This document shows, one piece after another, positions 8,300-58,742 of a DNA stretch of 64,000 nt (its first letter is position 1; every line of letters begins with the position of its first letter). Source of the DNA: a virus. The stretch covers positions 2,891 to 66,890 of IMG/VR virus record IMGVR_UViG_3300036881_000016; one strand, given 5' to 3'. A program made the translations under genes and the position numbers. The notes below the pieces were generated by a model. It had not been told where the DNA came from. It worked only from the letters and a program-made list of their open reading frames with translations, and did not search any database.

Positions 8300-8315
8300 G
8301 TTTCCTACAGGAAAC
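8300..8315. promoter_or_regulatory. 16-bp palindrome GTTTCCTACAGGAAAC (copy 1 of 6)
   Basis: Intergenic, immediately upstream of the terL start codon. Confidence 0.7.
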
Positions 8316-8318
8316 GGG

Positions 8319-8552
8319 CTACTCGGGTTCCACTCTGAGCAATATGCTGCCAGTAAGTTGTTCCGTGGCTTTTAAATGGAGCCTTAATTTGCCATCTTCC
8401 GGCATGATTTCAATGCGAATTATCGTTAATTTCTTCTGCTTCGCCTGATTTTCTTCTATTACGCTCTTAATTAACTCAAAATCGCTTCTGGAAACCCTTA
8501 ATACGAGCTTATTTTCGTCAACGGAGAAAGAACATCCCGCAGAATTGTCCAA
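8319..8552 (-). CDS. Hypothetical protein
   Basis: Co-oriented ORF with AGGTGAG RBS in the packaging operon. Confidence 0.55.
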   Translation of the reverse strand: MDNSAGCSFSVDENKLVLRVSRSDFELIKSVIEENQAKQKKLTIIRIEIMPEDGKLRLHLKATEQLTGSILLRVEPE

Positions 8553-8567
8553 AAACTCACCTCAAGT

Positions 8568-8753
8568 TTACCACTTCTTGCCGCCGTGGGCCTTGAATCC
8601 AGCGATGCGGCCTGCGGCCTTCGCGACTTGTTTCTTTGTCCCTTGTGCAAGTGCCTTACCTGTTGTGGGGCTTCTTAGAACGTGTGATCCCTTGGCGCCT
8701 TTCTTTTTGAGCTTAGTCTTCCCAGGGGTATTACCTGCTTTTTGAATTGGCAT
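8568..8753 (-). CDS. Small, highly basic protein (61 aa, no acidic residues)
   Basis: MPIQKAGNTPGKTKLKKKGAKG...; start reassigned to 8753, behind AGGAGGAG. Confidence 0.7.
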   Translation of the reverse strand: MPIQKAGNTPGKTKLKKKGAKGSHVLRSPTTGKALAQGTKKQVAKAAGRIAGFKAHGGKKW

Positions 8754-9271
8754 TTCTCCTCCTATCTGAATATATACACGACGCCGATTACGATGAGTGC
8801 TATAAGGCACGCGCCCACAATATCACCGATTGTCTGTTTTGACATCCCGATCCTCCTGTGCGAACGCTGCCTCGTAATAGACTTTCAACGTGATCCCTTC
8901 TGCATTAAGCATTAGATTCTGTAAGTTATCCATATAGCGACGAGCGATCTGTTCTGCCGTTTGGTGGCATCGCAGGTCACAACCTTCGCCTTCGTGTTCA
9001 AACATCTTTAGGGCCAGTCATGGTTTCCATCCGGATTCTCTTATCGTCAATATCCTCAATGTCGATCGGTTCTTTGCGTTCTTTCCGATAATCGAAAGAA
9101 TACGTGAACCGTTCCGGAGTCTGAATCATTTGATCCACGGTGGTACGACTCGTTGGACGCCCATATATGAGTCTTTGCTGCCTTTGTCTACATTGATGAT
9201 TTCATACTCTAAGTGGCTGCCGTCCTTGCATCGCGCCTTGTTGTTGCGTCCCATCGAATGTTTGAATGACA

Positions 9272-9691
9272 TTACTTAGGTCTGGTCCGCGTTCCTACGT
9301 TCGGTTGTGTCTTCGTTATTGGTCGGGTGCGAGTCCCGACGTTCGGCCCTGTGCCTTGTTTTGGTGGAGTTGTAGTTCCTGTATTCGGAGTCGCACCTGC
9401 GTTGGGCCGCGTTCGTTGTCCGATGTTAGGTGGCGTTCCTTGCACTGGTCGCGTTCTCGTCCCGCGTGCCTGAGTTACTGACGGCGCATTCGCAGTATTC
9501 GCTCCGATAATAGGGACGCCTTGTTTTGAGATATTCGCGCCTGACGCAACTGCTTGTGGTGTCGTGGTCACAGGTTTCGCTGTTCCTCCAACTGACTGGC
9601 CAGACGCGACGGGGGCCGAATACCCGGGAACCGCTGCATTGCCTTGTCTAACAGTCTGCTTCTTTCCAACCGTTACTTTTCCACGTGCCAT
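9272..9691 (-). CDS. Basic low-complexity protein with PN(I/V)G(Q/T)RTRP repeats
   Basis: MARGKVTVGKK...; T/P/G/R-rich with no acidic residues; three PNxGxRTRP copies. Confidence 0.65.
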   Translation of the reverse strand: MARGKVTVGKKQTVRQGNAAVPGYSAPVASGQSVGGTAKPVTTTPQAVASGANISKQGVPIIGANTANAPSVTQARGTRTRPVQGTPPNIGQRTRPNAGATPNTGTTTPPKQGTGPNVGTRTRPITKTQPNVGTRTRPK

Positions 9692-9698
9692 CGTTAAT

Positions 9699-9812
9699 TC
9701 ACTTCCCCTTTGCTTTCTTAGCCGCTCGTGCTGCGGCCATACGCGCACCGAAGTTTGCTTTGCTATTTGCCTTTGCAGGCTTCGCCGGAACCTTTACTGC
9801 TTTCTTTGCCAT
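9699..9812 (-). CDS. 37-aa Lys/Ala-rich, histone-H1-tail-like peptide
   Basis: Below the track cutoff. My translation: MAKKAVKVPAKPAKANSKANFGARMAAARAAKKAKGK; RBS AGGTGA. Confidence 0.65.
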   Translation of the reverse strand: MAKKAVKVPAKPAKANSKANFGARMAAARAAKKAKGK

Positions 9813-10195
9813 TTGTTTTCACCTGATCCCCAACCAGTTCAAAATCACGACAACCATTATGATTGTCACCACTACATTAAGATACGATACTTCCATTTTA
9901 GTTCACCTATTGCTCTTTCTATAACTTCTATCGAGCGAAATAATGGGTCTAATGCTTCCACCAAATCGTCTCTAAGTGCTTCCAAGTCAGATTCAAACAT
10001 CTTCACGCCTCTGAATGTATTGCACCATCCACGCTACCACGTCTTCCATAGACTTACTCTTACCATCCACGGCCTGCAACATTCCACCTCGTTTCATCAT
10101 CCACGTATGATCCTCACTTGAAACGAAAATCTTCTTTCTATCTGCAACCCATTTCTTGTAATACGTTGACGCCGGAGTCTCGCCTTTCGGAGGGT

Positions 10196-10690
10196 TCATA
10201 CGTCCTTAACCTCATCCCCGAACACAATCGTCACGCTTCCAGTAACCTCAGTCTTCCTCTCCTTGTTAAGTTGGAAAATATCATTGAACGTATCCTGCGC
10301 CATCTTGTATCTCTCGCGTTTCTCACGAGCGCTTAGATTCAGTTCATCTTCATTATCCATCATATCCGAATATTTATCCAACTGTTTCTGAGCCCGCTTG
10401 ATTGCCTTCGCCTTGTATTTCTTGATAAGCTTCTCGTTCTGCGCGAGCTCCATCTTCATTATATGATCGTCATACGCTTCCGCCCGGCGAATCCAATCGT
10501 GTTTCTTGCCGTATGATCTTAATGTGGAGGGTTGAAGGTCAAACTCGACTCCTGAGTATTTCTTCTGGACAGCCGTATAGGTCCTTGTGGGGCCATAATC
10601 ACGGAAAAAACAAAATAATTCATACGCCTTCGTAGGTTCGTCATCTCGACGATCCCAAGGATCATTAAGCTCTTTAGACTCTTCTGTCAT
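10196..10690 (-). CDS. Terminase small subunit-like HTH protein
   Basis: First gene of the packaging operon; 'PWDRRDDEPTKAYELF..FRDYGPTRT..WIRRAEAYD' followed by a helical region and a beta C-terminus. Confidence 0.6.
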   Translation of the reverse strand: MTEESKELNDPWDRRDDEPTKAYELFCFFRDYGPTRTYTAVQKKYSGVEFDLQPSTLRSYGKKHDWIRRAEAYDDHIMKMELAQNEKLIKKYKAKAIKRAQKQLDKYSDMMDNEDELNLSAREKRERYKMAQDTFNDIFQLNKERKTEVTGSVTIVFGDEVKDV

Positions 10691-10717
10691 CTACACTTGA
10701 CGTAGGCACCGGAGTTG

Positions 10718-13881: not shown

Positions 13882-13943
13882 CTCTCTTTTTTATGTCGTC
13901 TTAACAAGATTCACAACTTGAGACGGCTTGAACTTTTGGAGAG
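13882..13943 (+). promoter_or_regulatory. Conserved leader hairpin, copy 1
   Basis: CTCTCTTTTTTATGTCGTCTTAACAAGATTCACAACTTGAGACGGCTTGAA; near-identical to 14632-14683. Confidence 0.65.
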
Positions 13944-13950
13944 CTGAATA

Positions 13951-14631: not shown

Positions 14632-14693
14632 CTCTCTTTTTTTATGTCGGCTTAACAAGGTTCAAAACTTGAGCTGGCTTGAATAAAAGGAGA
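14632..14693 (+). promoter_or_regulatory. Conserved leader hairpin, copy 2 (upstream of Ku)
   Basis: CTCTCTTTTTTTATGTCGGCTTAACAAGGTTCAAAACTTGAGCTGGCTTGAA, followed by AAAAGGAGA. Confidence 0.65.
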
Positions 14694-14703
14694 TGATTCA
14701 AAA

Positions 14704-17002: not shown

Positions 17003-17054
17003 CTTCCCTTTCTTTGTATGTCGGCTCCGATAGGGCGAAGCGGCCAAAGGGAGG
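17003..17054 (+). promoter_or_regulatory. Divergent third copy of the leader hairpin
   Basis: CTTCCCTTTCTTTGTATGTCGGCT...AGCGGCCAAAGGGAGG, overlapping the hairpin GGAAGCT-TAT-AGCTTCC. Confidence 0.45.
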
Positions 17055-18141: not shown

Positions 18142-18369
18142 TGAGTCGCTTGTGTAATTGTCCTTATTCAAGGGAAGCAGTTAAGAATTGTCGGCGTGGC
18201 TACTGGAAGGATGGCGAGATGTTTTGTCTTTGCACAAAGGATTGCGCGAGGTGCTATGCTGACTCGAAGCGAATGGTTCCGATGCACGCCGACTTGAACG
18301 CTGAATACAAGGCGTCGATAGCAATTAAAACGAATCAAGCGAAAGAAAAAATGAAAGGTGAGGCTAATC

Positions 18370-19530
18370 ATGTTGGAGAAAATAAAGCGACTAGTTAAGG
18401 GTGAAATTTGGGACGAGTTAGTCTTCGAGCCTGAACGTGCTCCGAGAGTAGCTTACAGCAAGCCGGAAGTGATTGAGACGCCTCAGCAAACGGCGATTCG
18501 AGCGGCGATCCGAGAAATTGAACGGCTCGTGGGAACGTCATTAAACCGGCATGAGGCAATGGTATATCGCGAAGCTTATCGGCTGTTGATCGAAGGGCAA
18601 TTTCACGCCTATTGTTCTCATACCATCGGTGAATATCACGCCGGAGATTGTAACTTGCGTCAACTTTTGCTTCGCGGTGCGCTCCGAGCATCATTTTCAA
18701 GCAAGAGTGCGTTGCTTCACTTCGCGATGACTGGCGCTACGGGATCAGGAAAGAATGATCTCATTGAGAACATGGCGAAGATCCTGCCGGTAAAGAATGT
18801 GGTTATGTATTCAAGCATAACGCCACAGGTTCTTTATTACGAGATGCGCCTTCCGTTTCCCGGAGTGAAGAATGGATGGACGATGAACCCTGACCATTTC
18901 AAGAACTGCATAATCTGCATCACTGAGATCGCAGATTCAAAGGCTTTCACAGCATTGAAGGCGTTCGCTGAACTAAACGAGTTCAGTTCTTACACGCACA
19001 AGGCGACGAGTGGACAACGATCATTAGACCTTACGGTTCGTGGGCCGAGATCGGTATGGGTTTCGAGCGTGATGGGAATAAAGGATGACCAAGCGAACAG
19101 GCGGTTCATTCATAACGAGATGGATGAGCAAAACCTTGCGAGGCGTGAGGCTAGAGTGCAAACGATTACTGACAGTTTGCTCTCGCAAACAAATCTCGCT
19201 GATGATCCGCGAATGAGAATCTGCCGAGCGGGGTTTGATCTTCTATTCGCGAGCAATCCGAAATTTGAGCAACCAACGACTGACGTGGCAGCGGTGATCT
19301 CTGACCTGAACGTTCTGCTTGACCGGACTGACCATTCACCAAGCCAGTTCAAACAACTCTACGCTCTTATAGAGTGCGGAGCTGCGCTGAGACAATTCGA
19401 GCGAGGCTATTGCAGGATTGAGATGCAGGATGTTTGTGAGGGCTGGTTCCTGAGCGGCTTCGAGACAGAAAAAGAACTATTGCTAGGCGGTCAATGGGTT
19501 AAGCCCGTTGATCCGATGGATGGTTGTTAA
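18370..19530 (+). CDS. AAA+/P-loop ATPase, putative replicative helicase-like
   Basis: Walker A GATGSGKN, Walker B-like 'IICITE', 'SSITPQVLYY', Arg-finger-like 'DDQANRRF'; RBS AGGTGAGG. Confidence 0.65.
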   Translation: MLEKIKRLVKGEIWDELVFEPERAPRVAYSKPEVIETPQQTAIRAAIREIERLVGTSLNRHEAMVYREAYRLLIEGQFHAYCSHTIGEYHAGDCNLRQLLLRGALRASFSSKSALLHFAMTGATGSGKNDLIENMAKILPVKNVVMYSSITPQVLYYEMRLPFPGVKNGWTMNPDHFKNCIICITEIADSKAFTALKAFAELNEFSSYTHKATSGQRSLDLTVRGPRSVWVSSVMGIKDDQANRRFIHNEMDEQNLARREARVQTITDSLLSQTNLADDPRMRICRAGFDLLFASNPKFEQPTTDVAAVISDLNVLLDRTDHSPSQFKQLYALIECGAALRQFERGYCRIEMQDVCEGWFLSGFETEKELLLGGQWVKPVDPMDGC

Positions 19531-22456: not shown

Positions 22457-22783
22457 TTACCGTCTGAAGATTCTTTTCCACCAGGGAGTCATGATCTTCT
22501 CAGCTGCCGGAAGTAACTTTATTGTAGCCAATGCGTATTCACCTCGGAGCTCCTCGAGCATTGAACGCAACTCTTGAAGTTCTTGATCCTTCGCTGCAAG
22601 CAGTTCAGCTTTGTGAATATTGTCGATCCGAAGTTGTTCAGTCTCTTGTGTTTGTGGTGAGTAGTATTTCTCAAGAGCGAGCTGAACGATGTTGCCTCTT
22701 GGGATGCTTTCGCCTTGTGATTGATCTTCCAGCTTCTCGGCCAGTTCATCCGAGACTTCGATCCGAAGTTTGTTTAAAGGCAT
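22457..22783 (-). CDS. Ribbon-helix-helix + coiled coil + C-terminal amphipathic helix protein
   Basis: 'KLRIEVSDELAEKLE..IPRGNIVQLALEKYY' (RHH-like), heptad coiled coil, C-terminus 'PWWKRIFRR'. Confidence 0.7.
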   Translation of the reverse strand: MPLNKLRIEVSDELAEKLEDQSQGESIPRGNIVQLALEKYYSPQTQETEQLRIDNIHKAELLAAKDQELQELRSMLEELRGEYALATIKLLPAAEKIMTPWWKRIFRR

Positions 22784-22812
22784 AGAGGATGATTGGAAGC
22801 ATAGGTCAAAAC

Positions 22813-22828
22813 GTTTCCTACGGGAAAC
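22813..22828. promoter_or_regulatory. 16-bp palindrome GTTTCCTACGGGAAAC (copy 2)
   Basis: Intergenic, about 30 nt upstream of the RHH gene. Confidence 0.75.
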
Positions 22829-23077
22829 CGTATTTAAAGAATATGTGTCGTAACATATTCTTTATAAATGAATCCGTAACTCACAAATATGTGTCATGCT
22901 TCCGAAGATAGCACCGGAAAAAGATAGTTTATTTATTATCGGAAAAATTCTCCCGTTGAGCATGTTCTTACTTTATATAAATACCTTACGAAATATGGTG
23001 AGAATCGGCGAAACATTAGCATGGTTCGAGCATGTTGTGTTTCGGAGGTTAACACAGGAACCATAGTTTGAGATTCA

Positions 23078-23085
23078 TTTATATA
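23078..23085 (+). promoter_or_regulatory. TATA box TTTATATA
   Basis: 22 nt upstream of ATG 23108, which has no RBS. Confidence 0.5.
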
Positions 23086-23107
23086 TGATCTGTGACGAGT
23101 ATAGACT

Positions 23108-23509
23108 ATGGCAGATATGTTTAGATTCATCGCTGATGATGACAAATCTTTTTGGAAACGTATCAGCTCAAGAGTCGATGGCTGTCGGACTCCTCATTGC
23201 TGGGAGTTAAAGGATGAGGAAGACGGACAAATATATCTTGATCGAAAGCGCGTCGATACAGCGACGGGAGGTAAGCGAGGTCGATATGTACAGATCCGAC
23301 GCCTTCTATTTCTTGTAAGCTGGGGTGTCATATTACCGGGACGCAAGATAACTATGCGCTGCGGGAATACCAAGTGCGTTAACCCAGCTCATGCAAGAAT
23401 GAAAGGTGTTCCAGCAGAATACGGTCAGATTCAGATGCTCATAAACTCAAAGTATCTGACAGAAGATCAAGCGAAAATGTGGTATGTTGAGGCAAGGGAG
23501 GAACAGTGA
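23108..23509 (+). CDS. Degenerate HNH-fold protein
   Basis: 'FWKRI..CWEL..MRCGNTKCVNPAH'; the His usually found before the first Cys of the HNH motif is absent. Confidence 0.6.
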   Translation: MADMFRFIADDDKSFWKRISSRVDGCRTPHCWELKDEEDGQIYLDRKRVDTATGGKRGRYVQIRRLLFLVSWGVILPGRKITMRCGNTKCVNPAHARMKGVPAEYGQIQMLINSKYLTEDQAKMWYVEAREEQ

Positions 23510-23698
23510 ACGACACCGAACTTTTGGATCGAGTTGTCGAGATATTTGGAAGGACAGAATTTCGTGGCTTTGATGGCTTGACGGCTCAAAGCGCAGAAGT
23601 AGCAATTTAGCATACCCTTATAAGCAACCACTTCACATAGGTTTACTTGTATCTTCGTAGTAAGAAGATATTTAAATGTAGCAGGAAGTGTGCTGTGT

Positions 23699-24778
23699 AT
23701 GGTAGTTGCTGAAGTTGAAGCACCAATTAGTCTAGCCAAGGAGCATTTGCCCCTCAGGGTAGAACGTAAGTTGGTCAGGCCGAATCAATTCAATCCTCGA
23801 ACAAAGTATGACCGCGAGGACTTAACGGACCTGATGCCGAACATTGCAGCAAACGGCGTGAAAGACCCGTTGCTGGTTCGCCCGATCCCAAAAGACGAAG
23901 AGGGCCATATCTATGAAGTTGTAGACGGAGATCGTCGGCTGCGTGCCGCGACAGAGCTAAAGATCGCTAAGTTTGACGTATGGGTGAAGCGTATGTCAGA
24001 CGTCGAAGTGATGAAAGAGGGCACGATCTTTAACTTCTTTAGACGAAACATCGGTCCCGTCGAAGTAGGCCGAGCGCTTTCAACATTATATAAGGCGCCG
24101 GAATATGAGATGATGTCGCTCACGAAGTTTGCGCACACTATGGGATTCTCAAAAGGTGACGCCTCACGTTTGATGGCACTCCCAGACGGCTTGTCGATGG
24201 AGATTCAAGAGAAGGTTGCACCTCAAGGCAAGACACGCCGAATCCCTGAAGGCAGCATTGATGGCCGCACCGCGTATTACTTTACGCGAATCCCGAAAGG
24301 TGAGCGCCAGGTAGAAGTCGCCGACGCTGTAGCGGCTGTGCCGAAGCTGCGGGGAGATAGGGTAGGTAAGGTCGTCGAAGAAGCAAAGCAGCATCCGGAG
24401 GAGCCTGCAACCGAGATAATCGAGAAGCTTCTTAAAAGAGATGAGCACACCGGCGGTCCGACCCTCACGATGTCGCTTGAGGACTATCAGAAGATCGAGC
24501 AAGGCAAGAAGTCTACAGTCGTGGTGCGCGGTTCAGCTGTGCAGCCTGGCGTCAGACCGGAAGCGGAAGTAACACCGCTCGTCAGGGGCAAGCCTCTGAA
24601 GGTGATGGAGACATACCGGCGCAATCTCTCAAAGTTTAAGGATCGAGATGCAGAGCGCGATGGCTACAAGAACCTTGAAGAGTTCAAAGCGAAGTGGACT
24701 GAGCGATATGGGGAATGGCCCGAAGATGAATCAGTCTCAATAATTCAGTTCTACAGCGCTGACCAGTTAAAACATTAG
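23699..24778 (+). CDS. parB: ParB/Spo0J-family protein with HTH and a C-terminal ASCH-like domain
   Basis: 'PNQFNPR..NGVKDPLLVRP..YEVVDGDRRLRAA' (ParB CTPase motif); HTH 'SLTKFAHTMGFSKGDASRLMAL'; C-terminal 'KIEQGKKSTVVVR..DAERDGYKNLEEFKAKW..Y..VSIIQF' is ASCH-like. Confidence 0.85.
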   Translation: MVVAEVEAPISLAKEHLPLRVERKLVRPNQFNPRTKYDREDLTDLMPNIAANGVKDPLLVRPIPKDEEGHIYEVVDGDRRLRAATELKIAKFDVWVKRMSDVEVMKEGTIFNFFRRNIGPVEVGRALSTLYKAPEYEMMSLTKFAHTMGFSKGDASRLMALPDGLSMEIQEKVAPQGKTRRIPEGSIDGRTAYYFTRIPKGERQVEVADAVAAVPKLRGDRVGKVVEEAKQHPEEPATEIIEKLLKRDEHTGGPTLTMSLEDYQKIEQGKKSTVVVRGSAVQPGVRPEAEVTPLVRGKPLKVMETYRRNLSKFKDRDAERDGYKNLEEFKAKWTERYGEWPEDESVSIIQFYSADQLKH

Positions 24779-24780
24779 TG

Positions 24781-24815
24781 GGTAGGAACACTCGTTCCTA
24801 CCATCTTATTTTCTT
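24781..24815 (+). terminator. Hairpin plus pyrimidine tract after parB
   Basis: GGTAGGAAC-ACTC-GTTCCTACC followed by ATCTTATTTTCTT. Confidence 0.55.
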
Positions 24816-24861
24816 ACCTCTACCGAAAAGTTCTTATTAAGAACATCTAATTAGTAAGCGC

Positions 24862-24877
24862 GTTTCCGAGAGGAAAT
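24862..24877. promoter_or_regulatory. Palindrome GTTTCCGAGAGGAAAT (copy 3)
   Basis: Intergenic, just downstream of parB. Confidence 0.6.
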
Positions 24878-25171
24878 GTATTGAGGGAGGGGCACAGTGA
24901 TACACAGTCTTGTCTTGATGATATCGTCTTTAAGTAGCACACAGCTCGACCAGTTAACGGTAGCGCTTAGAAAGATGGGGGGCCGTGACGAAGAACACCC
25001 ATTAGCAAAGCCGGTGCCGACGGATGACGAAGGCGACCTAGGGCCAGTGATTGATGAAGTGGACGCGCTTATCCAAACCGGCGCGGAAGAGCATCGACGT
25101 TTATGGAGCGCACTAGAACGACTAGAAGGCAAACTTGATGCGTTGGAAGTTAATCGCGAGGTGTTTTAGAT

Positions 25172-25187
25172 GTTTCCCGTAGGAAAC
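25172..25187. promoter_or_regulatory. Palindrome GTTTCCCGTAGGAAAC (copy 4)
   Basis: Exact reverse complement of copy 2; extends to TGTTTCC..GGAAACA. Confidence 0.7.
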
Positions 25188-25278
25188 ACCGAGGAGGTGG
25201 ATCACGTCCGAGATCAGGCGCCAGCGGTCTCAGTATCGTCGGCGATGGGAGAACAGTAACAGCATTAGTCTTGACGCA

Positions 25279-25485
25279 TTGGATGAGCAAATCATCCAGT
25301 GTATTTTTAAAAACCCCGGTATTAGTATCGCGGGGATGTGGCGCCGCTTATCAAAGAGCATGGAGCCGCCACGTATCTATGTCATTCATTATCGCGTTAA
25401 GACTCTTGAAGCTGCTGGAATTTTAGTAACGGCACGAATAGCGAACGAGCGTAGATGCCGTCTCGCGCAAGGAGGGAAGAGGTGA
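25279..25485 (+). CDS. Winged-helix DNA-binding protein
   Basis: 'DEQIIQCI.KNPGISI..IHYRVKTLEAAGILV'. Confidence 0.6.
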   Translation: MDEQIIQCIFKNPGISIAGMWRRLSKSMEPPRIYVIHYRVKTLEAAGILVTARIANERRCRLAQGGKR

Positions 25486-26372: not shown

Positions 26373-26573
26373 ATGAGTCAGGTCGAAGTGTGGGATTTGC
26401 TTCGCACGAAGACGGAACCTGTGACGGTTCCAGAGATCGCGATGGAGTTGGGCTACAACACAAGCTCAATCTACAAGTTTCTGCATGGCCTCAAGATGCG
26501 GGGTGTTATTATCACGACGAAATACGGCAAGGGCCATCGGTTTAGTTTAAACGAACGAGGGAGGAAGTCATGA
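26373..26573 (+). CDS. Winged-helix protein
   Basis: 'PVTVPEIAMELGYNTSSIYKFLHGLKMRGVI'. Confidence 0.75.
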   Translation: MSQVEVWDLLRTKTEPVTVPEIAMELGYNTSSIYKFLHGLKMRGVIITTKYGKGHRFSLNERGRKS

Positions 26574-31311: not shown

Positions 31312-31327
31312 ATTTCCTACGGGAAAC
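31312..31327. promoter_or_regulatory. Palindrome ATTTCCTACGGGAAAC (copy 5)
   Basis: Lies between two HNH genes. Confidence 0.65.
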
Positions 31328-31380
31328 AAAATGAAGGAATAGAAGAAAATGGCAAAAGTAAATGAAAGGTTGAACTGAAG

Positions 31381-31923
31381 ATGCCAGCGCATTCGTCTGC
31401 GGAATATCTGCAAAAGTGGCGTGCTGATAACTGTCAGCATGTCAAAGACTACGCCTTGAAGTGGCGTTTAACGAACAAAGAGTATGTAAAATCATATATG
31501 CAGAAGTATCGAGCAGAGAACAAGCAGAAAATCGCTGAGCAAGAAAAACAATACCGCCAGCAAAACCATGCACGTTACCAGCAATGGTGGCGAGAATGGG
31601 ACAAGGCGAACCCAGAAAAAGTGAGAGTGAAACACCATAAGCGCCGAGCGCGATTATTAGGGAACGGCGGTGCATTTACTGCCGATGAATTGAGTGAGAG
31701 ATTTGAAGCACAGGAAGGAAGGTGTTACTATTGCGGGCGGTTACTTTACGCCTCGTTCGATCGAGACATCCACGTAGATCATAAAACACCCCTCGCAAGA
31801 GGTGGTTCGAACGAGATAAGCAACATCGCACTTGCATGCTCAGCCTGCAATTTCTCTAAAGGCGCTAAAACCGAAGAAGAGTATTTGAAATATGAAGAAT
31901 CAAGAAGAATTTGTTCCATCTGA
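31381..31923 (+). CDS. HNH endonuclease
   Basis: 'CYYCG..HVDHKTPLARGGSNEISNIALACSACNFSKG'. Confidence 0.9.
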   Translation: MPAHSSAEYLQKWRADNCQHVKDYALKWRLTNKEYVKSYMQKYRAENKQKIAEQEKQYRQQNHARYQQWWREWDKANPEKVRVKHHKRRARLLGNGGAFTADELSERFEAQEGRCYYCGRLLYASFDRDIHVDHKTPLARGGSNEISNIALACSACNFSKGAKTEEEYLKYEESRRICSI

Positions 31924-32542
31924 AGACGAAGAACGCGAAGCAACAACGAACGGCTTCAAAATATCTCACGGCAAGCCACAGCCAGACAAGCGCGTGATAG
32001 AGCCCGAAGAGATTCGCGCAGAAGCGCCAGTCCAGAAGCCTTACCGCAACGAAACGGTTGTACGATCGCAGCCGGCGCAGGCAACACCCGCGCAGCGAAT
32101 GGAGGCTGACGAAGAGGGTTTTCCTGAGCATCAGACATTCAGCCTCAAGCCAGTACCTCGCAAGTCGTTCTGGGAAGAGGGTATGTATGAGGTAAAGATT
32201 GACAGGGCGTGGCAAGCTATAGAACCTGATAACTTCCATACGGACCCTGCAACTGGCGAGCCGATGCAAGCGTGCTTCATGCACGTTCTCTATGTCACTG
32301 TAGACGGTGTGGCCCTCGAAGGCAGGACTTCAATGAGCCGCCATAAGAAGAGTCAGTTGACGGCGTTGTTGACCGCGATCTTTGGTGCGAACCCTCCACT
32401 GGACATCGAAAGTGATGATTTAGTTGGACGGCACCTGCAGATCGTGGTCAAGAACAAAGTCAGTGCTACTACTGGAAATGAATATCCAACAGTCAAAGAC
32501 TGGTTGCGTAGCTCGCGACAGTTTGAACCGGCAGGTAAGTGA
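31892..32542 (+). CDS. Putative single-stranded DNA-binding protein (phage OB-fold-like)
   Basis: 'EGMYEVKI..SQLTALL..FG..DDLVGRHLQIVV....G.EY..V' resembles DUF669-like phage SSBs. Confidence 0.5.
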   Translation: MKNQEEFVPSEDEEREATTNGFKISHGKPQPDKRVIEPEEIRAEAPVQKPYRNETVVRSQPAQATPAQRMEADEEGFPEHQTFSLKPVPRKSFWEEGMYEVKIDRAWQAIEPDNFHTDPATGEPMQACFMHVLYVTVDGVALEGRTSMSRHKKSQLTALLTAIFGANPPLDIESDDLVGRHLQIVVKNKVSATTGNEYPTVKDWLRSSRQFEPAGK

Positions 32543-35839: not shown

Positions 35840-36103
35840 ATGGCGATGGATGATGTTAGGAATTTGCTCAGAGAATCGGGCCGTGGCATGACCTTAGAAG
35901 AGCTGGCCCACGCTACTGGCTTAGCTAAAGGAACGGTCCAGCGCAACGTCGCCGATCTCTGGAAAAAACATGAAATTTCGCGGATGTATAAGTTCAATGA
36001 GCTTAACATCCGCTACGTTTATTACTTCTACGGCTCGAACTTAGTGGGCGACAATCAGATGAGGGGTGCATGGCCAAAACAGAAGGTTGCGATAAAAAGG
36101 TAG
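35840..36103 (+). CDS. Winged-helix protein
   Basis: '[25 protein letters not shown]'. Confidence 0.75.
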
Positions 36104-51790: not shown

Positions 51791-51791
51791 T

Positions 51792-54700
51792 TTATTGCCC
51801 CGCTAAGTGGTGGTATTGCTCAAGCTCGCGAATCGCTGCGAATACCTCGCGCTTTATATTCTCGTTATCACTGACGATGCTCACCTGATATGTCGGCGCA
51901 CCCGATGTTAGTCCCGATAAGGCTTTAATGAGTGTGTCTACAAGTGTGGACGAGAATGAACCACTAGAACCGCCCGATCCAACAATGGCACCTGACCCAA
52001 AGTGCGGCAATGTATTAATGAGGCTGCCCCAGTCTTCACCCCATCGGTGCTTAGGAACTACCATCTCAGCTTCTCCCGCTTCGGCAATGACGGCAGCGAC
52101 ACCATGCACCTTCGGAGCAAAAACACCGCCTGTTGCCACAGGAATAGTCACAGGGCCAATGGTAATGCTTCCGGTGATTAGCGAGTGAACGTCAATACTC
52201 CCACCCGTTATGAGGTCCCCCCAAAGGGTTTTCGCTCCGCCTGTGATGTAAGTCGACCAGATGTCATGAGCGCCACCAGTGATGTAACTCCAAATGTCGT
52301 GAGCACCCCCCGTGATGTAACTCCAAATGTCGTGAGCACCCCCCGTAATATATGACCAGATATCATGCGCCCCGCCGGTTATGTAAGTCCAGACACTATG
52401 AGCTCCGCCCGTTATGTATGACCAGATATCATGCGCCCCGCCGGTGATGTATGACCAGATGTCATGCGCTCCACCAGTGATATAACTCCAAATGTCATGT
52501 GCTCCGCCAGTGATATATGACCAAATATCGTGTGCGGTCCCCGTGATCCACGTCCAGACTTCCTTAGCGGTGCCGGTGATCCACGTCCAAATCTCTTTAG
52601 GTGCGCCGGTAATGAAGTCCCATATAGACTTAGCGCCACCGACAACGGTAGTTGCAGCTGAACCGACCGCGCTTGTAACTTGGCCTGGAACTGCGCCCCA
52701 ATTAGTTTTCATAAGGGGTGCTAGTGGGCCTTGATCGAGATCGAAGATGCCACCTTTGGTAAGTTTGCTAAATTCCGCTCCGTAGTCAGCTTTAGCGAGA
52801 GGAGCTAACGGGCCATTATTGAGGTCGAAGATGCCCCCTTTGGTTAATGCGCCCCAGTCAACCGAACCAGCCGCCCCCATTATTTTGGATGGCAGGTTGA
52901 TCATGCCGGGCACGCTTTGAGCGCTGCTTTGAGCGCCCTCTGTCGTGTTATAGAGCCGAGGCTTCTTTAAACCAAAAAGATTATTTATGCTGTAGCCACC
53001 ACCTAAGTTGCCCAAGGAGTCAAGGGCGCCCTGCGGGCTCAAATTCGGCATCGCCGGTGCCTTGAGGCCACCAAAGAAGTTTCCTATACTACCCAAGCCA
53101 CCCATAATGGCGCTTGCACCTGGTAGGTTCTGTGGTAATAACGAACCATTTCCGAATATTCCACCCGCCATTGGATTGGTGAGATTGCCTCCGAAATTTG
53201 CCATTCCCCCTAGACTACCAAGGGCGCCCCCCAGATTCCACGTTTCGGGATCAAACGCACTTATACTCCCTAATATGCTGGAGGTGGGCCATTTGATGTT
53301 ACCAAGTGAGCTAAGTGCTGAGTCACCCAACGAACCAAATGGATTCTTTAACGGATTGTTAGGGTCAAAAGATTGGCTAGATGTATTAGATGATGAGTTC
53401 TGGGTCTTGTTGCCTGTTGCGAACTGGCCCAGACCCATAGCATCTAGGATAAACGTCCCCCAATCAATGTGGGACATCGCGTCTGTTATGCCTTTTTGGA
53501 AGCCGTTAACAAGGGCGTCGCCAGCGTCTTGCCCTGCTTGCGCGAGTTTACTGGTGCCGGACTGACCAAATGATGCTGTGCCGAGATTCGGGGATGTTAT
53601 CTGTTGGCCGATAATGTTCCCTGTGGATGTTCCAGGACCCCCACTACTCCCACCGCTGTAAATGCCTGCTTGATCGCCCGCGACTGTCGCAATCATTGAC
53701 CCAAGTATCTCGCCGATGGCGGTTCCGATGCCTGTCCAATCGACATCGTGCTCCATATAATCAGCGAGCTTACCTGCAAGTGGCTGAATCCCATCCATTA
53801 TGAGCTGCCACAGATCGCCAAGTCCGCTCTGAAAACCGCTAACGAAGTTCTTAGCAGCAGTTATACCCACGCCGACGAGATTTGGCTGACCAGTAGTGAT
53901 TAGGGCAGTTGGGATGAGATCGCTTAAACCGCCAACGAGCGAGTTAAGTGCAAGTTGTATCGCATATCGAAGACCGGAACCAAGGGCGGTTCCAACGCCG
54001 GTCCAGTTGATACCTTGAATCCAATTCATGAGACTAATCTGAATATAGTCCCATACAGGCCCAATCGTGGCCATTGACAGTTTTATGGAGTTAGAAATAT
54101 CATTTGGGATTTGGGTAGCAAGTGCGCCCCACGGAACGCTATTTTCCCAAGTCGTAAAACTTGTCTCTATAGTGTTCCAGATAGGTGTTAAGTCCTTTTG
54201 AAGATCATTCAGACCTGCGATGATTGCTATAGGTATCTTCTTGGCGTCCGCAGTCCAATTAACGCCATTGACCCAAGTGGTGAAGTCTGCTGACGCTGTG
54301 GTCCATATCTTCTTAAGGTCCGTTGTCAGCGTGGTTATGCCTGTGACGATCGCCGCTGATATCTTCTTGCCGTCGCCAACCCAATCAACACTGTTGTACC
54401 ACGTAGTAAAATCCGTCGCGACCGTATCCCATATCGTTTTAAGATCCGCTGGCAGTTTGCTTACACCTGCGACGATCTGAGTGGAAATAGTCTCGCCAAG
54501 ACCCTCCCAGTTGATCTTGCTTATCGTATTCCACATATCGGTGAAGCCGCTAGTAAAATCCGCAAATCCTGCTTTGTAGTTTCCACTGAGTATGTAACTC
54601 AGTCCGGAGGAGATGTGGCTTCCTAATGTAGTAAAAGCACCAGCCACGGTTCCAAGAGTGCCCTCAAGCTCACTAAGAGTATCTCGAAACTGTGCAGAGC

Positions 54701-56171
54701 TTGTATAAGCAAGATAAAATGCAGCGGCCATAGGCGCGATGATGGCGACTAATGCACCAATAGCTACCGTCGCGACGATTATCACCGGAGCAAGCAAAGC
54801 CATAACGCCTACGATGAGCGGAAGAGCTGTGACAACCGCACCGACGGCAGTAACGATAGATCCAAATGCTGAGATAAGCCCTCCAATGATTACTAGCGCC
54901 GGACCTATTGCAGCAACGAGGCCGACTACTACAAAAATTGCGTCAGCGACGGGCGTGGGAAGGTCACTGAATGCACTTGCTAAGTCACCAATTATGCCGA
55001 TGACGTCTTTGATGAGTGGCATCAGCTGAGTGAATGCCGAGATCAACTTCTCGCCGAGAGGGTTCAAAGCGATCTCAAGGGCGTTCTTCATTATATCAAT
55101 AGACTGTGCGAATGTGATGGTGCTGGCGCCGACGGTATTAAGACTAATTGACATCCCGTTAGACAACGCAATGAACTGCGCTGCAGTCAGGTTGCCGTCT
55201 TTAATCACGTTAAAAACGTTATCCGCAAAACGGGAACCAAATATGTTTGCTGCATCGCCAACAGAGATAAGGCCGTGCTGTATGCCGTAGAAAACACCCT
55301 GAAGCTGGTCGGCAGTGGTATTGCCCTGGATACCAGCATCCTTCATTGACTTGGTTACGTCATCGACCCACGCAGCGGGTTTGGCCGCAGCCATGCCCTT
55401 GCCAAGGTTGGCCCACGCATAGGCAATTCCCTGCATCGTGCGCGTGACATCCAAACCTTTACTTTCAATATCGCCGATTATTGGGATAATCTGTTGAAGC
55501 GAGAAACCAGCGGATTCAATAACCGGCTTATAGGTGGTAAGGTCGGTGAGGATCGAAGTAACCGGAACCCTGGCAGCTTGGGCTGCGGTATAAACCTGGT
55601 TCATGAAGCCTTCGGTCGCCTTTGCCGAAACACCCCAACTCTGTATAGCTGCCGTAAACTCAGAAGCGAGCGAAGATGCGCTTTCGCCAGTCATTCTCGA
55701 AACGTCGAGGATGTTCTTAGAAATCTCGGAGATAGCGTAGGCGCCCTCAGAGAGTTTGTTATTGACTGTTGTAAGGACTGTTGCCGTGTCAGTGAAACTA
55801 TTTGGGACTGTTGAAGCAAGGTTATCAAACTGCGTCTCGAGGCCCGCGAGCTTAGAACCAGTCGCGCCCGTTCCTGCGATGATGATAGCATACGCTTTTT
55901 GAACATTATTGGCCGCAAGTAAAGCAGCGGCGCCGACTGCAACGATAGGTGCTGTAACCATCAGCGACATGCCGACACCAGCGGCGGTCATTGTGGCGCC
56001 GAATGCTTTTATAGATGCCCCTGCACTGGTTATAGCTGCCCCTATAGTTGCGAAAGGCGTTACCGCTGCAGCGCCGAATGCTTTTATAGATACACCGGCA
56101 CTTGCGAGAGATGCATCTAACCCAACGCTGTCACCTAAGATGTGGACGATAATCGGCTCTACTGTTGCCAT
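51792..56171 (-). CDS. Tape measure protein (1459 aa)
   Basis: Long Ala/Gly-rich helical protein with hydrophobic segments and Trp-periodic repeats; C-terminal 'ATGG..AEAGEAEMVVP'; follows the chaperone genes. Confidence 0.93.
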   Translation of the reverse strand: MATVEPIIVHILGDSVGLDASLASAGVSIKAFGAAAVTPFATIGAAITSAGASIKAFGATMTAAGVGMSLMVTAPIVAVGAAALLAANNVQKAYAIIIAGTGATGSKLAGLETQFDNLASTVPNSFTDTATVLTTVNNKLSEGAYAISEISKNILDVSRMTGESASSLASEFTAAIQSWGVSAKATEGFMNQVYTAAQAARVPVTSILTDLTTYKPVIESAGFSLQQIIPIIGDIESKGLDVTRTMQGIAYAWANLGKGMAAAKPAAWVDDVTKSMKDAGIQGNTTADQLQGVFYGIQHGLISVGDAANIFGSRFADNVFNVIKDGNLTAAQFIALSNGMSISLNTVGASTITFAQSIDIMKNALEIALNPLGEKLISAFTQLMPLIKDVIGIIGDLASAFSDLPTPVADAIFVVVGLVAAIGPALVIIGGLISAFGSIVTAVGAVVTALPLIVGVMALLAPVIIVATVAIGALVAIIAPMAAAFYLAYTSSAQFRDTLSELEGTLGTVAGAFTTLGSHISSGLSYILSGNYKAGFADFTSGFTDMWNTISKINWEGLGETISTQIVAGVSKLPADLKTIWDTVATDFTTWYNSVDWVGDGKKISAAIVTGITTLTTDLKKIWTTASADFTTWVNGVNWTADAKKIPIAIIAGLNDLQKDLTPIWNTIETSFTTWENSVPWGALATQIPNDISNSIKLSMATIGPVWDYIQISLMNWIQGINWTGVGTALGSGLRYAIQLALNSLVGGLSDLIPTALITTGQPNLVGVGITAAKNFVSGFQSGLGDLWQLIMDGIQPLAGKLADYMEHDVDWTGIGTAIGEILGSMIATVAGDQAGIYSGGSSGGPGTSTGNIIGQQITSPNLGTASFGQSGTSKLAQAGQDAGDALVNGFQKGITDAMSHIDWGTFILDAMGLGQFATGNKTQNSSSNTSSQSFDPNNPLKNPFGSLGDSALSSLGNIKWPTSSILGSISAFDPETWNLGGALGSLGGMANFGGNLTNPMAGGIFGNGSLLPQNLPGASAIMGGLGSIGNFFGGLKAPAMPNLSPQGALDSLGNLGGGYSINNLFGLKKPRLYNTTEGAQSSAQSVPGMINLPSKIMGAAGSVDWGALTKGGIFDLNNGPLAPLAKADYGAEFSKLTKGGIFDLDQGPLAPLMKTNWGAVPGQVTSAVGSAATTVVGGAKSIWDFITGAPKEIWTWITGTAKEVWTWITGTAHDIWSYITGGAHDIWSYITGGAHDIWSYITGGAHDIWSYITGGAHSVWTYITGGAHDIWSYITGGAHDIWSYITGGAHDIWSYITGGAHDIWSTYITGGAKTLWGDLITGGSIDVHSLITGSITIGPVTIPVATGGVFAPKVHGVAAVIAEAGEAEMVVPKHRWGEDWGSLINTLPHFGSGAIVGSGGSSGSFSSTLVDTLIKALSGLTSGAPTYQVSIVSDNENIKREVFAAIRELEQYHHLAGQ
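52200..52636 (-). repeat. 33-bp/11-aa tandem repeat (AHDIWSYITGG) in the tape measure gene
   Basis: Seven exact amino-acid copies plus degenerate flanking copies; copies differ at synonymous positions. Confidence 0.9.
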
Positions 56172-57148
56172 TTAGTTCCCCGTAGCTTTCTTTATGCGCT
56201 CACTGACTGCGTTCAGATACTCTACGTCGGCGCCTACGTCTTCATCAGGCAGCGTGGATGGTGGTGTAACCTCGTCGATTCTCACTGCGTTCTTTACTTC
56301 CTTCGCAAAAAGCGTCTCTACTACTTGGGGGGTAAGGTGAACCGGTGCGACTTTGCCTTCGATCTCGCCGCGCATAACCTGTTGCAGGTATGCACGATCG
56401 CCTGTAGCGTCACGCGCAGCCGCTTTTTGCGGCTTCTTGCCGGACATCCCGTAGCTTACGCCGTAGGCGATTACATCAGCGAATCGCTCTTCGTAAGCTA
56501 GATGGGCTGCTATCATCTCATGTAGCTCTACCAGTGCATAGTCCCACCAGAATTCACGGGGACGTAATTTTAACGTTCCGTATGCGTGCTTCTTTAACTC
56601 TCCCCAGTCAAGGGTCCATTTTTTTCTGCGGCTGCTACTTGGCCTTCTTCCGCTGCCTTTTGAGCCGCAGCAATCTCCTCGTCAGTAATTCCGAACGCGT
56701 TTTGTAGGGCTTTATCCACTTGCTCCGAGTAATATTTTATTTTAGCAAGTTCCATCATGTCGTCCAGCTCTTCGAGTTTAAGCATCCGAGTTTCCCAAAG
56801 AAGCCCCGCCCAAAGAAACACCTTGAGCTGCGACCATGACATCCCCATCCCCGCTCTCTGCCATCTAAGGATAACCGAGATAGGTGTGGTCGGATTGCCT
56901 GTATTCACATCCGGATAATGATTCTCTATCTTTTCTATTGCTCCCATTTTAAAGTCGATCCGTCGAACATCGTTGTCCTTAAAGACAACTTCGACCGACG
57001 TATCTGATCCTGCCCCGTTCATATTGCGTCCTCCTTTCGGTCCTTTCACGGGCTTGTCGTGAACTATGGATTCATCGCCGTTCGTGACAGCTCCTCCTTT
57101 CGCTTTTCTGAGCCCATCTGTTCCAAGTCCTGCCTTTCGTTCTGCCAT
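56172..57148 (-). CDS. Tail assembly chaperone, long form made by -1 frameshift (gpGT-like)
   Basis: Slippery A AAA AAT at 56624-56618. The -1 frame reads KWTLDWGELKKHAYGTLKLRPREFWWDYALVELHEMIAAHLAYEER and continues into ORF 56172-56516. Confidence 0.8.
56594..57148 (-). CDS. Tail assembly chaperone, short form (gpG-like)
   Basis: Between the tube genes and TMP; 'RIDFKMGAIEKIE..LKVFLWAGL'. Confidence 0.8.
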   Translation of the reverse strand: MAERKAGLGTDGLRKAKGGAVTNGDESIVHDKPVKGPKGGRNMNGAGSDTSVEVVFKDNDVRRIDFKMGAIEKIENHYPDVNTGNPTTPISVILRWQRAGMGMSWSQLKVFLWAGLLWETRMLKLEELDDMMELAKIKYYSEQVDKALQNAFGITDEEIAAAQKAAEEGQVAAAEKNGPLTGES

Positions 57149-57157
57149 ACTTTTCCT

Positions 57158-57673
57158 CTAAGGAACCGTGAAGATTCCCATCGAACCGTGTGCCTGCATG
57201 TTTGCGTCGCAGTTGAGCGTTATCATGCCATACGTTGCCGAGTTCGGATCGGGATCAATGTAGTGATCCAGATAAGGGATAACGAACGACTTTTCGACGT
57301 CTGCCTGTAAGACATTCATCACGAAGTTATGCAGGCCTGCATCGTTTGTTCCCGCCGCGTTGGCACACGCCAATGGCATACTACACGCCACTTTGCATAC
57401 TGCGGTAACAGTCACACCCCAGGCACCTGCAGTCTTGAGAGTCAAGAAGTTGAGATTGCCTGTAGGCGTGAATGTCACGGTAGCTGGTAACGAACCTGTG
57501 ACAAATGTTTCCTGTGCAGTTCCTAATGCAGTTAACGCGGTTACGACCGGCGGTGAAGTCGTCAGTCCTTCTTTGAGTGGTTCCGGTTCGGGTTCCTGTG
57601 ACACAGGCGTTGCCCATCCATCAGTTTCAGGTTCCGGTTCCACCGTGTCAGTTACTTCTTTGCTTTTAGCCAT
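57158..57673 (-). CDS. Putative tail-associated structural protein
   Basis: Beta-rich; distantly resembles the adjacent 57675-58241 protein. Confidence 0.5.
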   Translation of the reverse strand: MAKSKEVTDTVEPEPETDGWATPVSQEPEPEPLKEGLTTSPPVVTALTALGTAQETFVTGSLPATVTFTPTGNLNFLTLKTAGAWGVTVTAVCKVACSMPLACANAAGTNDAGLHNFVMNVLQADVEKSFVIPYLDHYIDPDPNSATYGMITLNCDANMQAHGSMGIFTVP

Positions 57674-57674
57674 T

Positions 57675-58241
57675 TTACGACCCCACTTGGAACAAACCTA
57701 CGTTAAACGACGTGGCACTACTGTAATTTATGCTTATGTTGCCGTCATCATCAATGAAGTCGTTTGTGTGTGCTGTAGTGTCGAAGTTAACTGATATGTC
57801 TGCACTGCCAGCAACGGCAACAACAAGGTCCGCGCCGCCTAGCCATAATGTCGCTGTCCGCGCCGTGGTGTAATTGTTGACTAAACCAGCGGCGGCGTCG
57901 ATTGTGACTGCATTTCCGTTGACCGATAATACGGTGCAGTATTCGCGCCCCGCACTGTCTACGATTGTACACTGATTGCCGACGTTGAACTTGCTGCCCA
58001 ATGTAACGTTAATCACTGCTTGACCTGCATTTGCATTGCTAGTAAGCACTGAGTTGACTGGCGCGGCCCCTCCTGGGCGCGTCGTGGGAATCGTGACGGT
58101 GATCGATGGAACGCCGGCGTTCTGGAACCTAATAAATTCAGGTTTTGAGGACGGCTTGAACCGATCTCCGCACGCTGTCGCTGCAGCTAATGTCTGCTTG
58201 ACCCCAACTGTGGTTATAGGTGTAGGCGTTAAACTCGCCAT
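57675..58241 (-). CDS. Putative tail-associated structural protein with an inserted beta-module
   Basis: 'GDRF..FIRFQNAG..SITVTI..DDDGNISINYS'. Confidence 0.55.
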   Translation of the reverse strand: MASLTPTPITTVGVKQTLAAATACGDRFKPSSKPEFIRFQNAGVPSITVTIPTTRPGGAAPVNSVLTSNANAGQAVINVTLGSKFNVGNQCTIVDSAGREYCTVLSVNGNAVTIDAAAGLVNNYTTARTATLWLGGADLVVAVAGSADISVNFDTTAHTNDFIDDDGNISINYSSATSFNVGLFQVGS

Positions 58242-58253
58242 GATCTCCTACTC

Positions 58254-58703
58254 CTACGATGCCATCGTTGGGAATGTAAGCGGTCCGTCTGCAGTGAACG
58301 TTCCTTTTAGAGTAGCTTCTGTCGCTACTTGGTAGTCAAGCGTTGCAGTTTCCATGTATCCAAATCCCTGCGCCACATAGCCGCCAGGGAATAGAAGTTC
58401 GACTTGAACCCGGCCTGGTTGGTTTGCAGAGTTGTCCATAAACGTTGATCGTATGTAGTCTATGGTCGCTTCTGCGTGAACACCGTCGGACTGAAGCCAG
58501 TGCATGCCAGTAAAGTCTATTGACCAATCACGGTCGCCGGGTACTCTGTATGTCCATCTGTTTGAACCTTTCCAGTTAACTGCAATAGTCGTCATCTTAA
58601 GGTTCAACGTGCATCCTCTTTGACCGAAAAGCGTTGTCCACGTGCTAGCTATATTCAGTTTTAGCAGTACGTCGGTCCCGATCAAGGGAATTTCGCCAGC
58701 CAT
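58254..58703 (-). CDS. Tail tube (major tail) protein, TP901-1-like
   Basis: 'GTDVLL..GQRGCTL..W...PG.RDWSIDF.G..G.GY......AT..GTF...GPL'. Confidence 0.85.
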   Translation of the reverse strand: MAGEIPLIGTDVLLKLNIASTWTTLFGQRGCTLNLKMTTIAVNWKGSNRWTYRVPGDRDWSIDFTGMHWLQSDGVHAEATIDYIRSTFMDNSANQPGRVQVELLFPGGYVAQGFGYMETATLDYQVATEATLKGTFTADGPLTFPTMAS

Positions 58704-58726
58704 TTTTTATTACACCTCTTTTAGTT

Positions 58727-58742
58727 GTTTCCTTTAGGAAAC
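58727..58742. promoter_or_regulatory. Palindrome GTTTCCTTTAGGAAAC (copy 6)
   Basis: In the 55-bp gap upstream of the tail tube gene; followed by GGG, as in copy 1. Confidence 0.7.

Follow-up and report, generated by a model that had tools for sequence, protein, structure and literature searches.

A dispersed 16-bp palindrome in a tailed virus as a possible set of regulatory sites for an orphan ParB-like protein

The question raised by the 64,000 bases of viral DNA analysed here is which protein recognizes a 16-bp palindrome, GTTTCC-N4-GGAAAC, that recurs in six dispersed copies, and to what effect. The stretch (hereafter the window) covers positions 2891-66890 of a 66,890-bp viral record (IMG/VR record IMGVR_UViG_3300036881_000016, here G000) that is 99% complete by CheckV, and one of its genes, parB, encodes a ParB-like protein. 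A preliminary description of this DNA had proposed that the copies are parS-like or master-operator sites for the viral ParB, or for a neighbouring RHH-like protein, and that they possibly couple genome segregation to late-gene repression. The analysis reported here suggests that the six palindromes are cognate sites of ParB and that they serve gene control and not DNA segregation, much as the KorB protein and its OB sites do on a plasmid. We put the probability of this reading at about 0.5.

Six copies of one palindrome at gene starts

Four exact copies of the palindrome are present in the window (8300, 22813, 25172 and 58727), and allowing up to one mismatch raises the count to six through copies at 24862 (GGAAAT) and 31312 (ATTTCC), in both of which the mismatch is the outermost base. 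All six were found at the positions and with the letters given in the preliminary description. The sites, called A to F, are palindromic and are listed without a strand.

8300-8315: site A, 5 nt ahead of the terL ATG; the stop of the upstream open reading frame (ORF) is 3 nt before the site
22813-22828: site B, with the RHH-like gene on one side and the divergent HNH and parB genes on the other; the ATG of the RHH-like gene, on the minus strand, is 29 nt off
24862-24877: site C, with one mismatch (GGAAAT), 84 nt past the parB stop and behind a terminator-like hairpin
25172-25187: site D, 2 nt past the stop of a 90-aa ORF, with GAGGAGGTG directly after it
31312-31327: site E, with one mismatch (ATTTCC); its counterpart in the relative G001 is 21 nt ahead of the ATG of a 216-aa protein
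58727-58742: site F, with the stop of the tail terminator gene 16 nt upstream and the tail tube ATG 23 nt downstream

When the window was shuffled with its dinucleotides preserved, none of 100 shuffles reached the four exact copies (mean 0.00) and none of 100 reached six copies at up to one mismatch (mean 0.11, largest 2). The whole 66,890-bp record, including its first 2,890 bases, holds no extra palindrome at up to one mismatch; two matches with two mismatches, at window positions 9023 and 19175, look unrelated. Spacing between the arms is fixed as well, with TTTCC-Nx-GGAAA occurring six times at x=4 and zero times at any other x from 0 to 12, and with the everted order of the TTTCC and GGAAA arms occurring nowhere in the window. 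The centres of the arms are 10 bp apart. As had been claimed, all six copies lie outside the ORFs taken as genes, and even with a generous non-coding fraction of 14.9% the chance of this is estimated at 0.149^6, or about 1e-5.

The two-mismatch match at 19175-19190 (GTTTGCTCTCGCAAAC) is itself a perfect palindrome, with a symmetrical difference from the motif at position 5 of the arms. The ORF at 18358-19530 contains it, and about two same-frame palindromes per genome are expected by chance. A pattern scan of IMG/VR, which used the motif plus one flanking base on each side, gave at least 119 single matches; these were set aside as chance occurrences, the five large contigs inspected holding one copy each.

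The distance from a site to the next start along local transcription is 5-29 nt for terL, the tube gene, the 90-aa ORF (whose GTG is 19 nt past site C) and the RHH-like gene, and for the 216-aa protein gene in G001. No clear gene start was found behind site D. The earlier statement that two sites are directly upstream of terL and the tail tube gene agrees with the 5 nt and 23 nt found ahead of their ATGs, and the 3' arm of site A (AGGAAAC in the sense direction) is the sole Shine-Dalgarno-like stretch ahead of terL. Sites also cluster at parB, one lying 871 nt before the gene and two lying 84 and 394 nt after it, i.e. three of the six within 1 kb; this is in line with the description of three copies (22813, 24862 and 25172) around parB (23699-24778) within 2.4 kb.

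Other expression signals near the sites were also considered. No T run follows any of the six sites, and the terminator scan did not list them. A promoter-like box adjoins site B only, or perhaps site C as well: the box TTTAAATA lies 2 nt before site B on the minus strand, and site B has a TATA-like box on one side and, on the other, the point where the transcript of the RHH-like gene is expected to start. Sigma-70-like promoters were not enriched (6 found vs 15.1 expected), and reading of the sequences around the sites gave no common promoter box at a fixed distance from all of them. Among peat metatranscriptomes, five runs hold 6-9% of the tail-region words, of which the four examined consist of short contigs without usable starts or ends; the RNA contig of one relative runs across site F.

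Site E has an HNH gene as its neighbour in the window. This gene (31381-31923), 40 nt past the site, is an insertion relative to G001 (31367-31903) and has taken the place of the first five codons of the gene for the 216-aa protein, of which a 9-codon stub is left at 31349-31378. A general link between the palindromes and homing endonucleases was considered and rejected: two or three of the six sites are near HNH genes, a number that by a rough estimate does not exceed chance in a 67-kb genome with at least nine such genes.

The ParB-like protein and the half-site code

Several lines of evidence point to the product of parB as the protein that reads the palindrome.

23699-24778, plus strand: orphan ParB-like protein, the proposed binder, with ParB_N (GDRRLRAA), a Noc/ParB-type helix-turn-helix (HTH) domain and a C-terminal ASCH domain
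24781-24802, plus strand: terminator-like hairpin with a T run, after parB

The ParB_N domain of the protein matches PF02195 with an E value of 4.3e-16. Its GxxRxxA arginine patch is present as GDRRLRAA, in which G80, D81, R82, R83, L84 and A87 are invariant in 12 homologues, and a profile of 12 homologues has Noc as its best match (7nfu, E 1e-20, positions 10-239), then ParB/Spo0J, through the HTH region. An AlphaFold2 model (mean predicted local distance difference test score, pLDDT, of 71; residues 100-362 good) was used for a Foldseek search, which returned Noc, Spo0J, ParB and KorB, including the DNA-binding domain of Noc on its site (6y93_B, template modelling (TM) score 0.77 by target). 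The C-terminal 100 residues match ASCH proteins (YqfB, 9kyf, TM 0.72 by target; ZmASCH), and the nearest Atlas cluster likewise combines ParB_N and ASCH. Searches for ParA (PF13614, PF01656) were negative in all four records searched (G000, G001, G011 and G006) and positive in 14 of 14 control genomes, and the ParA-binding motif [LFI]G[KR]G[LFI] does not occur in the protein. Because both the partner and the motif are missing, the protein is regarded as an orphan, non-partition ParB. Viral contigs searched with its sequence alone gave no match, and genome contigs gave one distant match to the N-domain only. Its closest homologues are 53-80% identical and are encoded on contigs of 69.7, 51.5, 11.0, 14.7 and 67.7 kb, which were absent from the collections scanned.

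The letters of the palindrome are those of known ParB-family sites. The half-sites of parS and of the Noc-binding site (NBS), which we take to be GTTTCA and ATTTCC, each share five of six positions with GTTTCC, whose first letter (G1) is that of parS and whose last (C6) is that of the Noc site. The specificity study of PMC7383237 describes positions 1 (G/A) and 6 (A/C) as those at which the parS and Noc half-sites differ, with C6 read by an arginine at ParB position 201 and position 1 read by the residue at position 173. In a HMMER alignment R193 of the viral ParB is paired with the Noc arginine of ..ERHAR.. and K155 with a Noc glutamine. This Noc arginine is presumably R186, the C6-reading position. 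Of 13 ParBs encoded in loci whose palindromes have C6, 12 keep the arginine aligned with R193.

Distant homologues also have palindromes close to their parB genes. When metagenome contigs were scanned with the ParB alignment, 26 loci were recovered, whose ParBs are 37-40% identical or weaker matches. GTTTCC-N4-GGAAAC at up to one mismatch does not occur in these loci or in L045 (27 loci, 101 kb in all); many of them carry palindromes of their own in the same 16-bp frame, such as GTTAACC-NN-GGTTAAC, GTTGACC.. and GTTGACCGCGGTCAAC. In the 17 loci with a ParB 37-40% identical (55 kb), 18 same-frame palindromes were counted vs 0-4 in 20 shuffles, several of the loci being near-duplicates, and in 7 of the 17 (again with several near-duplicates) the first palindrome lies 15-45 nt past parB. 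Four more distant loci show 17-18-bp variants by eye. The relative G011 (53 kb, 93% complete) has five TTAACC-NN-GGTTAA sites and none of a control pattern; two of the five are past parB and the others are 12, 14 and 7 nt ahead of starts, one of these being the start of an HNH gene inside a split terL. In both L057 and G011 a variant of the family palindrome is found 10-12 nt past a TATA-like box in the promoter of the RHH-like gene.

ParB is supported as the binder indirectly: its DNA-binding domain is of the ParB/Noc type, the half-site fits, sites cluster at parB, and distant homologues are accompanied by same-frame palindromes. In the model proposed here, a dimer of ParB would nucleate on the double-stranded palindrome, with each HTH reading one GTTTCC arm and the 4-bp centre left uncontacted. 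A CTP-dependent clamp would then load at a few dispersed sites, as KorB does at OB on RK2, and the loaded ParB would lower or time the expression of the adjacent genes, possibly together with the RHH-like neighbour. Candidates for such control are the RHH-like gene, the ORF after parB, the 216-aa protein gene, terL and the tail tube gene. We infer both the binding and its effect from sequence; an effect on expression is likely because the sites are at gene starts and ParA is absent. Of the earlier proposal, ParB as binder has thus gained support from the domain, the half-site, the clustering and the distant loci, whereas the segregation part is not supported, given the missing ParA, the missing ParA-binding motif and the ASCH domain in place of the dimerisation domain. 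The term master operator is apt as far as position goes, with sites 5-29 nt ahead of starts.

Conservation in relatives and rival explanations

Relatives of the window were found by protein-based searches that were blind to the motif. The closest comparison is with G001, a 67,854-bp genome that is complete by CheckV and has 67-95% nucleotide identity to the window; it keeps the terL, tube and 31312 sites. Site A is kept in G001, G008 and G010, and site F in G001, G002 and G006, with one outer mismatch in G003 and G004. G006 has no site ahead of terL, but one 6 nt ahead of terS and one ahead of the tube gene. Six pairwise comparisons of orthologous terL and tail sites (G000, G001, G006 and G008) gave 0 differences in 72 arm positions, 9 in 24 spacer positions and 106 in 180 positions of the 15+15-nt flanks (ungapped, so that indels inflate the flank count). 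Where an arm does vary in any copy, it is in the outermost base only. Because the arms are invariant, the centre is free, the arm centres are 10 bp apart and no compensatory change is seen, a symmetric dimer on double-stranded DNA is the probable reader of the sites, and their conservation appears to fit a dimeric DNA-binding protein better than an RNA hairpin.

G001 differs from the window at the parB region, where about 660 bp with a different HNH gene stand in place of the following segment.

22617-25482: cassette missing in G001 (no strand assigned), with the N-terminal part of the RHH-like gene, site B, the HNH gene 23108-23509, parB, site C, the 90-aa ORF and site D

A remnant of 17 aa in frame, 88% identical to residues 63-79 of the RHH-like protein (tblastn E 7e-5), is present in a 31-codon open stretch of G001, and because of this remnant G001 is considered a deletion derivative that lost the cassette.

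Several observations weigh against ParB as the binder. ParB was not found in G001 (tblastn best E 6.1; no Pfam ParB_N) and neither was a full RHH-like gene, though three sites with perfect arms are kept there. The G001-specific ORFs contain no ParB-like or other relevant DNA-binding family among the 35 of 59 ORFs scanned (nested and structural ones left out). Near-identical contigs, with a terL protein 100% identical, occur in three further IMG/VR records, and because they recur the G001 lineage is viable without ParB. Unless the cassette was lost recently, G001 therefore speaks against any binder that the cassette encodes, and the possibility of an older loss is the main reason for placing the probability of the ParB reading no higher. 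The geometry of the site is another such point. Every copy in the window and in the relatives has the arrangement GTTTC-N6-GAAAC where parS has GTTTC-N4-GAAAC, so that the half-sites stand 2 bp wider apart than those of parS and of the Noc site; a centre 2 bp wider had been pointed out before and holds for the parS and NBS strings as written then. In the protein, the residue aligned with position 173 is lysine here and valine or serine in distant G1 clades, the N-domain is poorly modelled (pLDDT <50, residues 1-99), and Foldseek did not find the usual C-terminal dimerisation domain of ParB, with ASCH in its place. Of the distant loci, L049 and L054 have no palindrome in the 16-bp frame, and since these loci were fetched through ParB, co-inherited neighbours, including the RHH-like gene, co-vary with the palindromes equally.

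The strongest rival explanation, clearly less probable than ParB, is that the sites are operators of another dimeric regulator, encoded in the core genome (e.g. the winged-helix proteins at 26373-26573 or 35840-36103) or by the host, and that parB simply happens to sit among many regulated genes. This would account for G001, which keeps three sites with no arm changes in the absence of ParB and the RHH-like gene, and both winged-helix proteins are conserved there (97% and 60% identity; Pfam HTH_11 and HTH_IclR). However, it leaves unexplained why the half-site matches the ParB/Noc code and why same-frame palindromes come right after distant parB genes, and neither winged-helix protein matched G011 or the distant loci (tblastn E <= 0.01). 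Reading of the palindromes as RNA hairpins in 5' untranslated regions, acting on translation, stability or processing, is improbable. The placement 5-29 nt ahead of starts and the arm that forms the only Shine-Dalgarno-like stretch of terL would suit such a role, as would folding energies of -4.8 to -9.8 kcal/mol and the fact that three of four plus-strand loops are UACG or GAGA, tetraloops of a stable type. However, invariant arms (0 of 72 positions) without compensatory pairs around a free loop are the reverse of the usual RNA pattern. In addition, the folding z-scores are merely -0.5 to -2.5, there is no U run, the outer pair is broken in the sense strand at site E and at the G003/G004 tail site, and TTAACC-NN-GGTTAA of G011 would leave a 2-nt loop.

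Two further explanations keep the binder within the cassette. The preliminary description had allowed for the RHH-like protein (22457-22783) as an alternative binder, and its binding to the palindromes as a tetramer is a possibility with about the same low standing as the RNA hairpin. The start of its gene is 29 nt from site B, the pairing with parB recurs in G011, L053, L056/57 and L062, and in L057 and G011 the palindrome variants lie in its promoter. However, support for the fold is weak, and the geometry is not the usual RHH pattern: RHH dimers read short subsites by one beta ribbon, and a site whose 6-bp arms are separated by a full turn, its centre being free, is atypical. A 16-bp site with 6-bp arms one turn apart suits an HTH dimer, a second inverted repeat beside the gene is the likelier operator for this protein, and the protein is missing from G001 as well. 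The least probable explanation, and a very unlikely one, is that the sites are bound by ParB and act as centromeres dispersed over a plasmid-like prophage, in the manner of N15. It agrees with the dispersed sites, with a ParB-family protein and with the lack of an integrase in the PHROGs and Pfam scans, but ParA was found in 0 of 4 records by searches positive in 14 of 14 controls, ParB has no ParA-binding motif, and G001 persists without ParB.

The RHH-like neighbour has several features that bear on its own role.

22457-22783, minus strand: RHH-like protein, divergent beside parB; it has a long helix, and its C-terminal LLPAAE..PWW(K/T)R is conserved

The RHH-like gene divergently adjoins parB also in G011, L053, L056/57 and L062, and therefore the module appears conserved. 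Pfam RHH_1 matches two of five members (best E 0.014), and in the monomer model, for which Foldseek gave no match below E 2, pLDDT is 46-61 in the first 40 residues. An invariant C-terminal KLLPAAE...PWW follows the long helix in the homologues (alignment A2) and could be a docking peptide; the protein may be a partner of ParB or a regulator of its own. A second inverted repeat, GAATATGT-N6-ACATATTC, adjoins site B, and ATATGTGTC words are repeated beside the RHH-like gene; these are likelier operator candidates for the RHH-like protein than the palindromes. A 34-nt imperfect inverted pair also lies around the HNH upstream region, and this pair and the second repeat (22838-22881 and 23065-23098) could serve the RHH-like protein as operator.

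Genome context and comparison with known systems

The genome is siphovirus-like by PHROGs and Pfam scans. A leftward late block contains terS (10196-10690), terL, a portal gene and a protease fusion, and continues across the record ends into the tail genes, which include the tail terminator (58759-59163), tube (58254-58703) and tape measure (51792-56171) genes. A rightward block at about 12600-39150 contains Ku, at least nine HNH genes and ParB.

5739-8294, minus strand: terL with an intein, the gene downstream of site A
58254-58703, minus strand: major tail (tube) protein gene, downstream of site F
31892-32542, plus strand: 216-aa protein that matches no known family, the gene that site E would serve in G001; a homologue is present in G011

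Searches with a 227-aa neighbour and with the 216-aa protein gave a match in G001 only. No integrase or repressor family was found in the PHROGs and Pfam scans, and no tRNA genes were found. Similar DNA was absent from 50,697 isolated phage records, where all matches to the portal protein were <60% identical, and genome contigs held no prophage relative of terL.

Several other features of the genome were observed. The intein of terL (6929-8007) has Hint and LAGLIDADG domains, and a 1,077-bp stretch is missing at this place in the terL of G001; in G011 terL is also interrupted, in that case by an HNH gene. The HNH ORFs, at least nine within 13316-36528 (13316, 15772, 17657, 23108, 25748, 29481, 30726, 31381 and 36070), amount to an unusually heavy homing-type load. 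Boxes of the forms TTTATATA and TTTAAATG (23078-23085, 23671-23678 and 22830-22837) stand 21-22 nt ahead of the ATGs of HNH 23108 and parB 23699 with no Shine-Dalgarno stretch between; this spacing is that of an archaeal TATA box with leaderless mRNA, and in L057 and G011 similar boxes are found ahead of the RHH-like gene. Two copies of a 46-nt direct repeat, 89% identical (13887-13932 and 14638-14683), lie just upstream of ORF 13951 and of Ku (14704), a stretch near 17020 is related to it, and these repeats are candidate early promoters. A 683-aa protein (2100-4151) contains both a uracil-DNA-glycosylase-superfamily domain (residues 230-340) and a prohead protease domain of the XkdF type (521-624). 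Tandem repeats are present with a 33-nt period in the tape measure gene (52222-52650) and a 72-nt period in the gene of a BspA-type leucine-rich-repeat protein (62313-62888).

ParB-fold clamps do more than segregate DNA, as KorB, VirB, BisD and Noc illustrate. A survey lists many orphan phage and archaeal ParB fusions of unknown role, with ASCH fusions among them (PMC12704722), and the window supplies concrete candidate DNA sites for one orphan ParB-ASCH protein. These come with a natural series of specificity variants in related viruses and with a natural deletion derivative. If ParB does bind them, the virus would have its own ParA-free ParB regulon with a parS/NBS hybrid code and a new half-site spacing, which would shed light on how far altered geometry is tolerated in ParB specificity and in clamp loading. 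If ParB is not the binder, the sites would nevertheless indicate that packaging and tail genes have an as yet unknown regulator. A wider proposal, and a more tentative one, is that a family of tailed peat viruses, possibly archaeal, has a KorB-like circuit made of an orphan ParB-HTH-ASCH clamp and an RHH-like partner. Its sites would lie at the starts of packaging, tail and replication-type genes, their letters (GTTTCC.., GTTAACC.., GTTGACC..) would have diversified with the ParB clade as private codes, and HNH genes may insert beside them.

Among known systems, a partial resemblance to N15 concerns layout: N15 has IR sites that are dispersed over the genome with an effect on late genes, and in both viruses the phage encodes a ParB-type protein and has a small number of inverted repeats at scattered places in its genome. 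The N15 phage-plasmid uses SopB with the IR1-4 centromere sites (PMC7205306), and it has SopA and is a proven plasmid prophage, whereas no ParA or plasmid functions were found in the window. Stoperators of the cluster A mycobacteriophages L5 and D29 are similar in that copies of one short site occupy short intergenic gaps across a phage genome. D29, a deletion derivative without the repressor, keeps its stoperators well conserved (PMC5712189), and in this it parallels G001. Stoperators are, however, 13 bp long, asymmetric, oriented with transcription, numerous and bound by a monomeric immunity repressor, whereas the site of the window is palindromic and occurs six times.

The DNA-binding domain of the viral ParB is homologous to those of the ParB-parS and Noc-NBS systems (PMC7383237), with hybrid half-site letters at positions 1 to 6 and an arginine at the probable C6-reading position. 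Unlike in those systems, the half-sites are 2 bp further apart, there is no context of partition or nucleoid occlusion, and ASCH replaces the dimerisation domain. KorB of the IncP-1 plasmid RK2 is a ParB-family CTP clamp that represses genes together with a small DNA-binding partner, KorA, and its OB sites number 12 by the title of a reference in the same source (PMC11790492). As with KorB and OB, a ParB-family protein is found together with a short palindrome in several dispersed copies. KorB has a ParA partner (IncC), a C-terminal domain of its own and a 13-bp site (core TTTAGCGGCTAAA), whereas the window combines the lack of a detectable ParA and an ASCH C-terminus with a 16-bp palindrome in parS/Noc letters, placed at gene starts inside the operons of a tailed virus.

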